A stretch of DNA of 34,364 nt. Origin: Candidatus Izemoplasmatales bacterium (GTDB lineage Bacteria; Bacillota_I; Bacilli_A; Izemoplasmatales; Hujiaoplasmataceae). The notes under the pieces were generated by a model, which was given only the letters and a program-made list of their open reading frames with translations, searched no databases and was not told the origin of the DNA. Below, piece after piece: positions 1 to 34,364 of the stretch. The first letter of the stretch is position 1; the number at the start of each line of letters is the position of its first letter. The stretch is from positions 1-34,364 of the forward strand of contig JBFXGX010000020.1 in NCBI GenBank assembly GCA_050177605.1, read 5' to 3'. The translations under genes and the position numbers were made by a program.

Positions 1-2023
1 TAGACTCGATGAATACAGCGTTGACTGCAAGGGTCAAATTTAAGATGTGATCACCAATAGTGACTACAGAATCAGGAATAAAAACGTAATTGACGTTCGT
101 TATACCACGGAAAGCTTCATCACCAATCGTGAGTAAACTGTCTGGCAAGATAATACTTTCAATATCTCTTAAACTTGAAAAACTATATTCTTTAATTTCT
201 GTTAGATTCGATCCTTCTTCAAAATATATCGACCGAAGATGATAGGACGTAGACAATGCATAGGCTTCAATGATTTGTACTGTAGCAGGTATCGTAAAGG
301 TATCGCTTAATGAAGCAGAAGGATATTTCACTAGAACTGTTTTGTCTTTGTTATATAGAACGCCACCCTCATCAATATAATTCGGATTTTCGGCAGCAAC
401 ATTGATTGAAACTAAATCGCTACAACCCATAAATGCACCTGGTTCAATCGTAGTTACTGAACTTGGAATGGTAATTGATACAAAATTTGCATCCCAGAAT
501 GCACGATATTCAATCGTTGTGAGTGTTGAATCATCTTCAAAGACGATCTCAGACAAAGTTCCACCAGCAAATGCTTCCGTTTTAATTGTTGTGATTGTAC
601 GAGGAACCCATAGACTAGTCATTGTGGCTTTTCCAAGCAAATCATTGGTTACTTCTGTCCATGAAGCTGGTAAATATAATGTGATTTCATGTGGGAAGAA
701 TGAACTAACGAGACTTTCATTTACCTCCGTTGTTCCTTCTGAAACAATAATTCTTGAGAAGCTGTCTGGAATATCGACATAAGTAACACCAAAGAATCGT
801 GGAAGTATCATATTAATATTGAGTGAAATGGTTAATTCTTCCATCAAGGTATCGTTAAAAAATACATTTTGTCCTAAGTTCACCGTATTGAAAGAGAATG
901 TTGCGGATTTTAGATTTGGCATATTTGCAAAACTCTTGGTTTCTAATGTTGTCAAATCCTCGTTTCCAATAATTTCTTCCAAAGTATTATTTCCTTCAAA
1001 TGCGCTTTCTTGAACTAACGTAACCGTATGAAGTGCTACTTCATTTGGAAAGACAACAACACTTGCATTTCCATCATATCCACAAATCTCAGCATGACTA
1101 TAAAACATTTCATAGATGAGGCCTGATGAATCACTCCATCTTGAAGTTAAAGAAATATCTTTCGCATAGGTAAAATTAAATGGTGCAGATAGTTTCTCTC
1201 CTTCATAGAACCAGCCCTCAAACACAAGGCCTGGAAGTGACACACTTGGTAAGCTTGTAACGACACTATCAATCGTCGTATCCACTGGAGGATAAATTGT
1301 AGAATCGATCGAATTAAAGAAGATATGGAATGTTGTTTTACTCCACTTTGCATATAACTCGACATTGCTAGACGGCATGAAGGTACCAGTGAATCTTGAA
1401 GTCAATGCTTCATCTGTGTACCAACCTTCAAATGTATACCCTGGTTCTGTCGGTACGAGCAAAGTTAGTTGTGCATCGTATTTCACATTTTTAGTCACAA
1501 CATAGTCAAGAAATGGATTATGATATATCAGTTGATACTCATTGATTTCATAAACTGCAGTTAACACGACATTATTAGATGGCATTTTAGCTGGAACGAT
1601 TCGATTCCATCCAGTAAAACGATAGCCTTCTATTTCTGGTAAATCAGTAAAGGCAGTGACTTTATCTAAATAGTCATACTCCTCAGTGAAAAGCAATGTT
1701 CCACTTGGTAGATAATATGATATTGAAAAAGATTCTTTCTCCCATGAAGCATAAAGTTCGATAGAAGAATCTTTTATTTTCGTCAAGTCTTCTTCTGTTA
1801 CTTCATCTGAAAGATCTGAATCAAGATACCATCCTAAAAAACTGTAACCCTCTTTTGAAAAATCAGAATAAAAATTTAAATTTTCCCTGTCATCATAATG
1901 AACAGTAACATCATCTTCAGTATTATTTAAATGATAGACAATTTCTATTGGTCCAGAGTAGGTACATCCTAATAAGAAAGTAAATAGAAAACCAATGATT
2001 AAACTAAACGCGAACTTCTTCAT
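1..2023 (-). CDS. Surface lipoprotein with InlB B-repeats (Flg_new) and BspA-type leucine-rich repeats; runs off the window edge
   Basis: Manual translation from ATG 2023 (GGAGGA RBS at 2031-2036) gives MKKFAFSLIIGFLFTFLLGC (lipobox). It continues with KEGYSFLGWY / PGYTFEGWYTD...LYAKW B-repeats and IPSSVTTIEPGAF / LPDSLLTIGDEAF LRR_5 repeats, with no stop before position 1. Not in the ORF track. Confidence 0.9.
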   Translation of the reverse strand, partial: MKKFAFSLIIGFLFTFLLGCTYSGPIEIVYHLNNTEDDVTVHYDDRENLNFYSDFSKEGYSFLGWYLDSDLSDEVTEEDLTKIKDSSIELYASWEKESFSISYYLPSGTLLFTEEYDYLDKVTAFTDLPEIEGYRFTGWNRIVPAKMPSNNVVLTAVYEINEYQLIYHNPFLDYVVTKNVKYDAQLTLLVPTEPGYTFEGWYTDEALTSRFTGTFMPSSNVELYAKWSKTTFHIFFNSIDSTIYPPVDTTIDSVVTSLPSVSLPGLVFEGWFYEGEKLSAPFNFTYAKDISLTSRWSDSSGLIYEMFYSHAEICGYDGNASVVVFPNEVALHTVTLVQESAFEGNNTLEEIIGNEDLTTLETKSFANMPNLKSATFSFNTVNLGQNVFFNDTLMEELTISLNINMILPRFFGVTYVDIPDSFSRIIVSEGTTEVNESLVSSFFPHEITLYLPASWTEVTNDLLGKATMTSLWVPRTITTIKTEAFAGGTLSEIVFEDDSTLTTIEYRAFWDANFVSITIPSSVTTIEPGAFMGCSDLVSINVAAENPNYIDEGGVLYNKDKTVLVKYPSASLSDTFTIPATVQIIEAYALSTSYHLRSIYFEEGSNLTEIKEYSFSSLRDIESIILPDSLLTIGDEAFRGITNVNYVFIPDSVVTIGDHILNLTLAVNAVFIES

Positions 2024-2576: not shown

Positions 2577-2675
2577 AGGAATCCTCTTTTCGTTATGATT
2601 ATGATAAACATATTATCACCTTTGTTTATAGATTAACACCTTTTTACGAAATAATCAAGAATAATTTAAAATATA

Positions 2676-2704
2676 TTGCATAATTCTTAATATTGTGTTA
2701 TAAT
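2676..2704 (+). promoter_or_regulatory. SigA-type promoter TTGCAT-17-TATAAT with TGTG extended -10
   Basis: TTGCAT 2676-2681, TGTG 2694-2697, TATAAT 2699-2704; predicted start near G2711. Confidence 0.75.
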
Positions 2705-2710
2705 TTATTT

Positions 2711-2880
2711 GTCCCTGAAGGTACCTGCATATGTGAAGGGATCGCGTCACCAACTTATTTTCCTCGAAATTTCTTATCCTTTTCAATTCCCCAAAATTAA
2801 AGTTTTATTTTCTTAAATGAAGTGAAGGGTGACGCAAGCAGTAAAAAAGAGACTAGCAACAACTAGTCTCTCATTTTTTT
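2711..2880 (+). ncRNA. Putative structured small non-coding RNA, family not recognised
   Basis: Near-consensus promoter upstream and terminator downstream, with no convincing ORF. GC-rich stems GUCCCU/AGGGAU and GCGUCACC/GGUGACGC stand out against the AT-rich background. Confidence 0.6.
2843..2880. terminator. Bidirectional intrinsic terminator
   Basis: AAAAAAGAGACTAG-caacaa-CTAGTCTCT followed by a T-run. Confidence 0.8.
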
Positions 2881-3308
2881 ATTTCGCCTAACATTTTTTG
2901 CTGGACTATTTTGTTGGGAATGAGTTCTACTAATTCATCCATTTTTTGAAGTGAATATTCTAGTATAATCTCTTTACCCAGTGATTTAAACATCACGAAC
3001 CCATTTCTTTTCTTTTTTTCAATCAATACCTCGTTAATCTCTTTATATAAGATAGAAACAAACACTTTCTTTTTTTGAAAGAGAACGACTTCATTACTAG
3101 TGAATCTTACCTTTTTTTGAGAAAAAACAAAGAGTGATAAAATTCCTTCGCCAATGATTACATTGATCAAATATGCTAGCCAACTGATATGTCCATCGTC
3201 AGTGAGATTAAGAAAAGCATTGACCAAAAAAAGGAATGGTATGATAAGCATCACTAAATAGAAATATTTCATGCTTTCTTTATATTGATACATTGTTGTC
3301 TTTTTCAC
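2871..3308 (-). CDS. Hypothetical membrane protein (2 N-terminal TM segments)
   Basis: GTG start with GGAGGTG RBS; two hydrophobic stretches then a basic soluble domain. Confidence 0.7.
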   Translation of the reverse strand: MKKTTMYQYKESMKYFYLVMLIIPFLFLVNAFLNLTDDGHISWLAYLINVIIGEGILSLFVFSQKKVRFTSNEVVLFQKKKVFVSILYKEINEVLIEKKKRNGFVMFKSLGKEIILEYSLQKMDELVELIPNKIVQQKMLGEIKK

Positions 3309-3461
3309 CCGGCACCTCCATGAATATCTCTATTATATCAAATTTATCAAAAAACACATTATTTATCAAAAAAACCACAAAAATATGAGAATTTGTTCGT
3401 ATAGTTTGTTGTGTAAGTTGTAGGCATTTGATACAATGAAATTAAAAAGGGGGGATTCAAG

Positions 3462-3971
3462 ATGAGCTTCAAAGAGGAATTTGAACAAGAAAAAAAGGAG
3501 TTACTAGAAAATAAACGTCCATATGAAACTGCAGCTGCGATTATTTTCGCTGTTTTCTTCTTACAACAAGTTGGGATGTTACTCTATCGTACAGTAGAAT
3601 TTTTTATTGATCTATTCAAATCGGGTGTAACACCATTTTATTCATTTACGAGTATGACAACGCCAGTATTTTTCACACGTATCATCAACGTGGACAATAG
3701 TAGCTGGGTTTTTGTTTTACTAGGACTAGCTGCGCTTGTATTATGGTATGGACTAATCTACATCTTAGTCTTCAGGTACTGTGAGAAAAGGAAACTAGCA
3801 AAATGGACTTGGACGACTTTGATTATGTTTGGTCCAACGATTTTATTTATGCCACCGTATATCATTTACGCAGTCTATGTATTTCGTCCATACTTCTTCC
3901 GTTTTATTAAAACCGTCGTGGAAGAGTACAAAGCTTTTGATGTAAAGACTAAATTTAAAGAGGAAGAATAA
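3462..3971 (+). CDS. Hypothetical membrane protein (~3 TM)
   Basis: AGGGGGA RBS, TG-n-TACAAT -10 upstream, hydrophobic segments, terminator directly after the stop. Confidence 0.8.
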   Translation: MSFKEEFEQEKKELLENKRPYETAAAIIFAVFFLQQVGMLLYRTVEFFIDLFKSGVTPFYSFTSMTTPVFFTRIINVDNSSWVFVLLGLAALVLWYGLIYILVFRYCEKRKLAKWTWTTLIMFGPTILFMPPYIIYAVYVFRPYFFRFIKTVVEEYKAFDVKTKFKEEE

Positions 3972-24773: not shown

Positions 24774-24849
24774 TGGTAGCCCGTACGGGGTTCGAACCCG
24801 TGAATGCTGCCTTGAGAGGGCAGTGAGTTAACCATTTCTCCAACGGGCC
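24774..24849 (-). tRNA. tRNA-Glu (anticodon CUC)
   Basis: GGCCCGTTGGAGAAATGGTTAACTCA-CTGCC-CT CTC AA-GGCAG-CATTCACGGGTTCGAACCCCGTACGGGCTACCA; 76 nt, CCA encoded. Confidence 0.95.
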
Positions 24850-34228: not shown

Positions 34229-34304
34229 TGGTGACCTGTACGGGATTCGAACCCGTGAATGCATGCGTGAAAGGCATGTGAGTTAACCGTTTCTCCAACA
34301 GGCC
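34229..34304 (-). tRNA. tRNA-Glu (anticodon UUC)
   Basis: GGCCTGTTGGAGAAACGGTTAACTCA-CATGC-CT TTC AC-GCATG-CATTCACGGGTTCGAATCCCGTACAGGTCACCA. Confidence 0.96.
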
Positions 34305-34311
34305 ATGTAAA

Positions 34312-34364
34312 TGGCGCCCCAACTAGGACTTGAACCTAGGACCCCATGATTAACAGTCATGTGC
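34312..34364 (-). tRNA. tRNA-Asn (anticodon GUU), 5' part outside the window
   Basis: ...CATGA-CT GTT AA-TCATG-GGGTCCTAGGTTCAAGTCCTAGTTGGGGCGCCA. Confidence 0.9.

Follow-up and report, generated by a model that had tools for sequence, protein, structure and literature searches.

A 294-nucleotide (nt) gap between two minus-strand genes of a Candidatus Izemoplasmatales bacterium may hold an independently transcribed, species-restricted noncoding RNA gene of approximately 168 nt, a reading that we offer tentatively. The gap lies in contig JBFXGX010000020.1 (assembly GCA_050177605.1), whose positions 1 to 34,364, read on the forward strand, are referred to here as the window. It has a GNAT acetyltransferase gene on one side and the gene of an orphan protein of 145 amino acids (aa) on the other, and the gene map bears out the minus-strand orientation of both neighbors that an earlier note on this DNA had described. 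That note had proposed a stand-alone structured RNA with a long loop complementary to Shine-Dalgarno (SD) sequences. The predicted RNA spans positions 2711 to 2878, with the 5' end at G2711 placed by its distance from the -10 box. Given a promoter that is very probably functional, the plus strand probably yields a discrete RNA of about 168 nt, as far as the sequence can tell, and this RNA is perhaps an Hfq-independent regulator that pairs with SD sequences.

The strongest evidence for the candidate RNA gene comes from the statistics of its promoter. A sigma-A-type promoter with an extended -10 element occupies positions 2676 to 2704 of the plus strand, with the -35 hexamer TTGCAT at 2676 to 2681, a 17-nt spacer, TGTGt at 2694 to 2698, and TATAAT at 2699 to 2704; G2711 lies 7 nt past the -10 box. 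These motifs are present as the earlier note had read them, as a near-perfect promoter with a TGTG extension aimed into the gap. A consensus promoter scan did not list the site because TTGCAT matches TTGACA at only three of six positions. The combination of TTGCAT and a 17-nt spacer is native to this genome: the hexamer serves 6 of the 61 strong intergenic promoters, which puts it among their four most frequent -35 hexamers, and their modal spacer length is 17 nt.

We counted the pattern TTGNNN-16..18-TGNTATAAT across the host genome (1.94 Mb in 66 contigs, 34% GC, 89% complete). The gene set consisted of 1704 long reading frames, crudely called. The standard genetic code applies to this genome, because the sole tRNA-Trp anticodon is CCA. 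Among 73 copies of the pattern, 57 are intergenic and point toward a gene start, 12 are in coding sequence, 2 are at contig ends, and 2 are intergenic and point toward a gene end; the last two are the site described here and the promoter of tRNA-Tyr. Across all 175 kb of intergenic DNA, 56 copies were observed versus 1.2 +/- 1.1 in dinucleotide shuffles, so that the pattern is about 50 times commoner in real intergenic DNA, and the TRTGnTATAAT form carried by this site was observed 16 times versus 0.21 in shuffles. The site has what characterizes sigma-A/sigma-70 extended -10 promoters, namely, TGnTATAAT with TTGnnn 16 to 18 nt upstream, at a frequency above chance. With looser patterns, further "orphan" promoters were found to drive tRNA-Thr and ROOL RNA. 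As a methodological by-product, real promoters in this genome can be marked almost without noise by the strict extended -10 pattern, and orphan copies of the pattern point at RNA genes (tRNAs and ROOL RNA).

Some of these orphan promoters lie outside the window. The ROOL RNA (RF03087, 164.5 bits against a gathering score of 99.1) occupies positions 2099 to 2637 of contig C11, directly behind a TTGTTT-17-TATAAT promoter. Two more TGnTATAAT promoters point toward gene ends, at C10:49577 on the plus strand and C4:22570 on the minus strand, and each has a short noncoding stretch with a C-run downstream (GUCCCCCCACUC and UUUUUCCCCCUU, respectively). Neither stretch has an Rfam match at E values up to 0.01, and both may be further small-RNA candidates.

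The gap ends at a bidirectional intrinsic terminator at 2843 to 2880, which consists of an A-tract, a 9- to 11-bp stem at 2848 to 2871, and a T-tract and is common to the candidate RNA on the plus strand and the 145-aa gene on the minus strand. On both strands, a stem containing G and C is followed by a U-run in the transcribed direction: the plus side has nine pairs and then CA and seven U, and the minus side has 11 pairs with six U directly after the stem. The fold reaches a z score of -5.9 on both strands. Of the two, the minus side is stronger and terminates the 145-aa gene; the stop codon of that gene is inside the stem, and its last Lys-Lys codons form the plus-strand T-run. The hairpin and U-tract on which the earlier note relied at 2848 to 2871 are real, but they are two-sided, with the stronger side serving the neighboring gene. 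Two-sided terminators account for 44 of 65 between convergent genes versus 78 of 191 between tandem genes, a likelihood ratio of about 1.7 in favor of an opposing transcript, and the terminator is in this respect weak evidence for the RNA. The stand-alone plus-strand transcription unit of the earlier note is supported by the promoter excess over shuffles, the parallel with tRNA-Tyr, and the position of this terminator approximately 140 nt downstream.

Two helices can be recognized in the predicted RNA. The first is a 5'-terminal hairpin at 2711 to 2742, in which GUCCCU (2711 to 2716) pairs with AGGGAU (2737 to 2742); its first pair is G.U, its pair probabilities are 0.65 to 1.0, and it begins exactly at the predicted +1. 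The z score of this hairpin is -1.84 on the plus strand (17 of 300 shuffles were as good) and -0.36 on the minus strand, which in this folding model favors the plus strand. The second, P2, extends over 2744 to 2835 and is a perfect 8-bp helix between GCGUCACC (2744 to 2751) and GGUGACGC (2828 to 2835) that encloses 76 nt, with a pair probability of approximately 1.0 and a z score of -2.1 (16 of 300 shuffles were as good). The earlier note had drawn the same 5' hairpin followed by a long stem. The hairpin and the outer 8 bp stand, but the long stem shrinks to this one helix, as the inner stem between 2753 to 2760 and 2815 to 2823 is complementary but has a pair probability of at most 0.03; its full structure has an energy of -32.2 kcal/mol, versus -39.0 kcal/mol for the minimum free energy fold. 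The pseudoknot suggested between CUGC (2725 to 2728) and GCAG (2838 to 2841), at 4 bp, is too short to tell from chance.

Within the hairpin, at +6 to +19 of the predicted transcript, lies a 14-bp near-palindrome, TGAAGGTACCTGCA (2716 to 2729), that is symmetric at 12 of 14 positions around the core AGGTACCT. Instead of being a feature of the RNA, this element could serve as the operator of a DNA-binding regulator.

There is no credible reading frame in the candidate RNA, and it matches no known RNA family. A scan of the whole window against Rfam 15 at gathering scores returned nothing but three tRNAs, and this agrees with the earlier note, which had recognized no core motifs of the signal recognition particle RNA, RNase P, tmRNA, or hammerhead; the scan also covered 6S RNA. 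At E values up to 10, positions 2577 to 2900 gave nothing meaningful on either strand, the five subthreshold matches being eukaryotic snoRNAs and unrelated small RNAs (E 0.8 to 7).

Between the arms of P2 lies a G-poor, U/C-rich stretch at 2761 to 2814 of the plus strand, whose 54 nt comprise 26 U, 14 A, 12 C, and 2 G and are predicted to be mostly unpaired. It carries the C-rich motifs UCCUC (2761 to 2765), AUCCU (2776 to 2780), and UUCCCC (2787 to 2792), all predicted to be unpaired. We compared the gap with 333 spacers that separate same-strand genes and are 100 nt or longer. The mean GC skew of these spacers on the sense strand is +0.127, so that the coding strand is purine loaded. Among the 333, the candidate spacer takes an ordinary rank of 207 for overall skew, rank 33 for its G-poor run, and rank 26 for the density of SD-like motifs read on the opposite (minus) strand. 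Given these ranks and the purine-loaded coding strand, the anti-SD look is partly a mirror of normal strand composition. The loop of about 54 nt that the earlier note had described exists with its motifs and composition, but its enrichment is mild.

To rank possible targets, the loop was paired with crude start regions of 1700 genes, scored by duplex energy and by the gain in cofold energy. The best predicted partner lies at 3450 to 3479 on the plus strand and covers the ribosome-binding site GGGGGAUU (3450 to 3457), the start codon, and codons 5 and 6 of a gene for a 169-aa membrane protein (3462 to 3971, plus strand). This start region ranks 1st of 1700 by duplex energy (-32.8; mean, -15.0; standard deviation, 3.9) and 5th by cofold energy gain (-13.0; mean, -3.5; standard deviation, 2.3), and only 2 of 300 shuffled loops paired with it as well. 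The predicted helices join AAUUCCCC (2785 to 2792) with the ribosome-binding site, CUUAU (2773 to 2777) with the start codon, and UUCCUC (2760 to 2765) with GAGGAA (3474 to 3479). On these pairing models, the 169-aa gene start region as an RNA target is a lead only. The top five cofold targets are an ABC permease, a lipoate/biotin ligase-family protein, a YlbF/YmcA-like protein, a protein without a family, and the 169-aa gene, and a TetR regulator is sixth. The ribosome-binding site of the 169-aa gene has an unusual run of five to six G in this genus, and in more distant relatives the site is AGAGGUG.

If the RNA is made, the housekeeping-sigma RNA polymerase would start near G2711 from the extended -10 promoter, and the first nucleotides would fold at once into the 5'-terminal hairpin. 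In Firmicutes-type bacteria, a hairpin at the 5' terminus protects an RNA from 5' exonuclease. The 8-bp clamp of P2 would then hold out the mostly unpaired, G-poor stretch with its three C-rich motifs, and transcription would stop at the bidirectional terminator common with the convergent gene. The most likely action would be pairing of the C-rich motifs with G-rich ribosome-binding sites, with 3450 to 3479 as the best predicted partner. Such pairing would be independent of Hfq; neither Hfq nor CsrA was found in the genome (89% complete).

The surroundings suggest how such an RNA may have arrived. The 885-nt segment from 2577 to 3461, between two conserved genes, contains the candidate RNA and the orphan 145-aa gene and has a GC content of 28 to 33%, versus 35 to 41% in the flanks. 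In genome G001, the space between the orthologs of the GNAT and 169-aa genes is instead taken by a 944-aa lipoprotein-like gene, whose own ortholog is located at another place in the present genome. The candidate spacer was found to contain no remnant of this 944-aa gene. Because the segment is AT rich and the same spot in G001 holds a different gene, the RNA and the 145-aa gene appear to form a single recent insert. A more ambitious version is that a newborn regulatory RNA arrived with, or arose inside, this insert and already acts as an Hfq-independent anti-SD repressor of the adjacent 169-aa gene, which is conserved order-wide, through the predicted helices on its ribosome-binding site, start codon, and codons 5 and 6; we regard this version as distinctly unlikely. 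If true, it would be a dated example of how a new pair of small RNA and target comes into being.

Several results weigh against a functional RNA at this site. Among 60 relatives, blastn gave only short AT-rich matches, and its E values are inflated in such DNA (E was below 0.01 in 14 of 61 genomes). With a covariance model of the single sequence and its robust helices, no homolog was found in 100 relatives and all 4 other species of the genus. Pattern scans found no homolog in the genomes of 185,579 species (1 match) or in JGI metagenomes (4 matches), these matches all being in DNA of 56 to 67% GC and therefore due to chance, and plasmids and phages gave no match. The host genome holds the element as a single copy. 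Orthologs of the GNAT gene, present in 7 of 40 relatives, lack a comparable upstream spacer, and orthologs of the 169-aa gene (15 of 60 relatives) come with short leaders and without a candidate RNA nearby. With no homolog found, neither conservation nor covariation is demonstrable, and covariation of the helices therefore cannot be assessed. The earlier note had itself taken a lack of conservation of the stem as counting against a constrained RNA, and by that criterion the negative outcome in every collection searched does so.

Fold, composition, and target predictions point the same way. The whole predicted RNA has a z score of -3.0 because of its terminator; the body from 2711 to 2846 reaches only -1.15, with 38 of 300 shuffles folding at least as well, so that the body of what the earlier note had called a structured RNA is not significantly structured. 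The U/C richness places the gap only in the top 8 to 10% of spacers, as purine loading of the coding strand produces. U/C-rich RNA of any kind pairs well with the 169-aa start region (which, when the loop was shuffled, ranked 1st to 99th among 251 start regions, with a median of about 17th), and the other top predicted targets have no common theme. The terminator is expected anyway, for the 145-aa gene. The multitarget anti-SD RNA of the earlier note is accordingly unsupported, and the same holds for the structure, the anti-SD character, and the function of the candidate.

A few database matches were set aside on inspection of their positions. The best blastn match, in genome G003 (43 nt, 84% identity, E 1.6e-4 per genome), falls in the 3' end of a radical-SAM gene, where a stop codon interrupts it, and was judged to be chance. 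"Full-length" matches of the covariance model, at 21 to 27 bits, were aligned on terminators, and a match in genome G004 lay inside two coding genes.

The main alternative, in which a promoter emerged fortuitously in young AT-rich DNA, falls little short of the RNA gene in likelihood. It holds that there is no functional RNA and that the promoter arose by chance or is a by-product of the divergent GNAT promoter region in the recent 885-nt segment, with a noise transcript and chance helices, which is possible. The absence of the locus from every relative searched agrees with this explanation, as do the low GC content of the segment, the 944-aa gene between the same two flanking genes in G001, and the ordinary fold of the RNA once its terminator is left aside. 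Likewise, the stronger side of the terminator serves the minus-strand gene, and the 78 of 191 terminators that are two-sided between tandem genes show that such a structure needs no opposing transcript. Approximately 0.2 to 1.2 chance promoters of such quality are expected across the intergenic DNA of the genome. Against this explanation, the exact form of the promoter (TRTGnTATAAT with TTG at 16 to 18 nt) is expected by chance only 0.21 times in all 175 kb of intergenic DNA. Furthermore, a transcript from such a promoter would be abundant and costly if useless, and the start of the hairpin exactly at the predicted +1 also fits a chance origin poorly.

The promoter could also be real and act in cis, with convergent transcription, pairing of the terminator hairpins, or read-through antisense RNA tuning the 145-aa gene. 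The RNA and this gene converge and have approximately 38 nt in common (2843 to 2880), they seem to have arrived together in one AT-rich insert, and the start region of the 145-aa gene ranks 57th of 1700 as a pairing partner. However, the overlap extends no further than the terminator hairpin, which any convergent gene pair would share, and the plus-strand terminator looks efficient (a 9-bp stem and seven U), so that little read-through is expected. Known 3'-overlapping antisense pairs overlap by far more than about 38 nt. We consider a role in cis unlikely.

A known arrangement of this kind is the type I toxin-antitoxin locus with 3'-overlapping antisense RNAs, such as txpA/RatA and bsrG/SR4 of Bacillus subtilis. 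The candidate resembles it in that a small RNA converges on a small membrane-protein gene, the two 3' ends are complementary, and relatives lack the segment. It differs in that the partner protein is longer (145 aa, against fewer than 60), the overlap is the terminator only (about 38 nt), and the locus is present in a single copy. An assignment to type I toxin-antitoxin loci was rejected on the size of the product and the confinement of the overlap to the terminator.

It is less likely still that the minus strand carries the meaning, as a long leader of the GNAT gene, as a 32-codon frame (TTG 2753 to 2655) behind GAGGA, or as the decayed relic of a lost gene. On that strand, the C-rich motifs read as GAGGA, AGGAU, and GGGGAA, at the density that ranks 26th among the 333 spacers; the 32-codon frame has a moderate SD site (-5.9); and P2 folds equally well. 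The 43-nt match to the 3' end of the radical-SAM gene in G003 is accompanied by a faint echo at the protein level, but it is broken by a stop codon and its E value belongs to the inflated class described above. Between 2660 and 2846 there is no minus-strand promoter of comparable quality, whereas the GNAT gene has promoter-like sites near its own start (2628 to 2601). Neither strand carries an Rfam leader or riboswitch, and the missing trace of the 944-aa gene in the spacer speaks against a relic.

That the transcript is instead an mRNA for a 27-residue peptide (GTG 2733 to TAA 2816) is very improbable, since this frame, although open and wholly within the transcript, has a GTG start and a weak SD-like site that are both buried in the 5' hairpin, and its product is neither hydrophobic nor recognizable. 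It is the sole plus-strand frame of at least 20 codons wholly downstream of G2711. Its SD-like sequence, GAAGG, is separated from the start by 11 nt and has an energy of -4.2 kcal/mol, and 90% of the genes in the genome are at -4.9 or stronger. A longer in-frame version of 35 codons would begin at TTG 2709, 2 nt upstream of the predicted 5' end, with a site of -1.6 kcal/mol. In a variant contig described below, a 1-nt deletion at 2813 shifts the stop of the 27-codon frame by one codon only, according to our reading of the frame, but the change T2803A would turn a Val into an Asp.

We also rejected a cis-regulatory leader or riboswitch. The next plus-strand gene starts at 3462, which is 590 nt away across the antisense of another gene; that gene at 3462 has a short leader and is served by an extended -10-like site of its own.

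Among the closest known systems is RsaE/RoxS (RF01820). According to PMC4409812, C-rich regions of RsaE/RoxS pair with G-rich SD sequences, and RsaE is conserved between Staphylococcus and Bacillus. Like RsaE/RoxS, the candidate would be a stand-alone RNA of roughly 100 to 170 nt with its own promoter and terminator; its several C-rich motifs, predicted to be mostly unpaired but enriched only to the top 8 to 10% of comparable spacers, could pair with SD sequences, as PMC4409812 describes for RsaE/RoxS; and it would act in a genome where no Hfq was found. In contrast, it has no RF01820 match either in the window at the gathering score or on either strand of 2577 to 2900 at E values up to 10, and it is kept in no relative searched, unlike RsaE as PMC4409812 describes it. 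The motifs of the candidate lie in one long loose stretch, whereas the C-runs of RsaE/RoxS are in defined hairpin loops.

A further likeness is to lineage-specific "orphan" small-RNA genes of bacteria found by prediction of promoters and terminators. These have a strong intergenic promoter and an intrinsic terminator within 200 nt, with no credible frame and no relatives outside the species, and the candidate, known here from sequence alone, is no different in kind. It does not define a new RNA class or family, and it has no conserved structure. If made, the RNA would be one more species-restricted small RNA, in an uncultured low-GC bacterium with a 1.9-Mb genome from landfill metagenomes in which neither Hfq nor CsrA was found. 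Wider value would lie only in its being a young small RNA with a datable origin, since a sister species has another gene at this position, and any generalization from it would need expression data.

Variation at the locus was surveyed in sequencing runs and contigs. The runs that hold the locus are landfill DNA runs and three runs from oil production facilities, the latter with shares of 0.06; no RNA sequencing runs are listed among them. A contig from a second sample has 16 differences over 2770 nt, none of them between 2515 and 3077, and approximately 1.7 would be expected in the spacer; the absence of differences is only weak support for the candidate RNA. A 300-nt X4 contig from another study covers 2583 to 2876 with 11 differences and one gap, including T2803A and the deletion at 2813. 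The promoter stretch alone, at 2662 to 2708, is matched by two other short X4 contigs, with 80 to 85% likeness. One of these two has a 10-base string identical to the first 10 bases of the RNA in its unmatched flank, upstream of the promoter-like part, and this string may be due to chance or to a rearranged relative.

The neighboring genes on the minus strand include that of a BspA-type leucine-rich-repeat surface protein at 2 to 2023, the GNAT acetyltransferase gene at 2052 to 2576, and the orphan gene convergent with the candidate RNA at 2871 to 3308. The 145-aa product of the latter is predicted to have two membrane helices, and its tail weakly resembles a bacterial PH-like domain, with a match to bPH_3 (E 0.012) that is under the Pfam cutoff. 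Its single relative, P0004, at 79% identity, was found in Logan contigs only, in a search of 5.8 billion clusters; the 60 relatives yielded one weak match only, and no relatives were found in JGI metagenomes. Elsewhere in the window, two tRNA-Glu genes (anticodons CUC and UUC) and one tRNA cut by the window end lie at 24774 to 24849, 34229 to 34304, and 34315 to 34364, all on the minus strand. Finally, the divergent promoter region of the 145-aa and 169-aa genes contains a 13-nt exact direct repeat, ATTTATCAAAAAA, at 3342 to 3354 and 3361 to 3373, 19 nt apart, which is a possible regulator-binding site.

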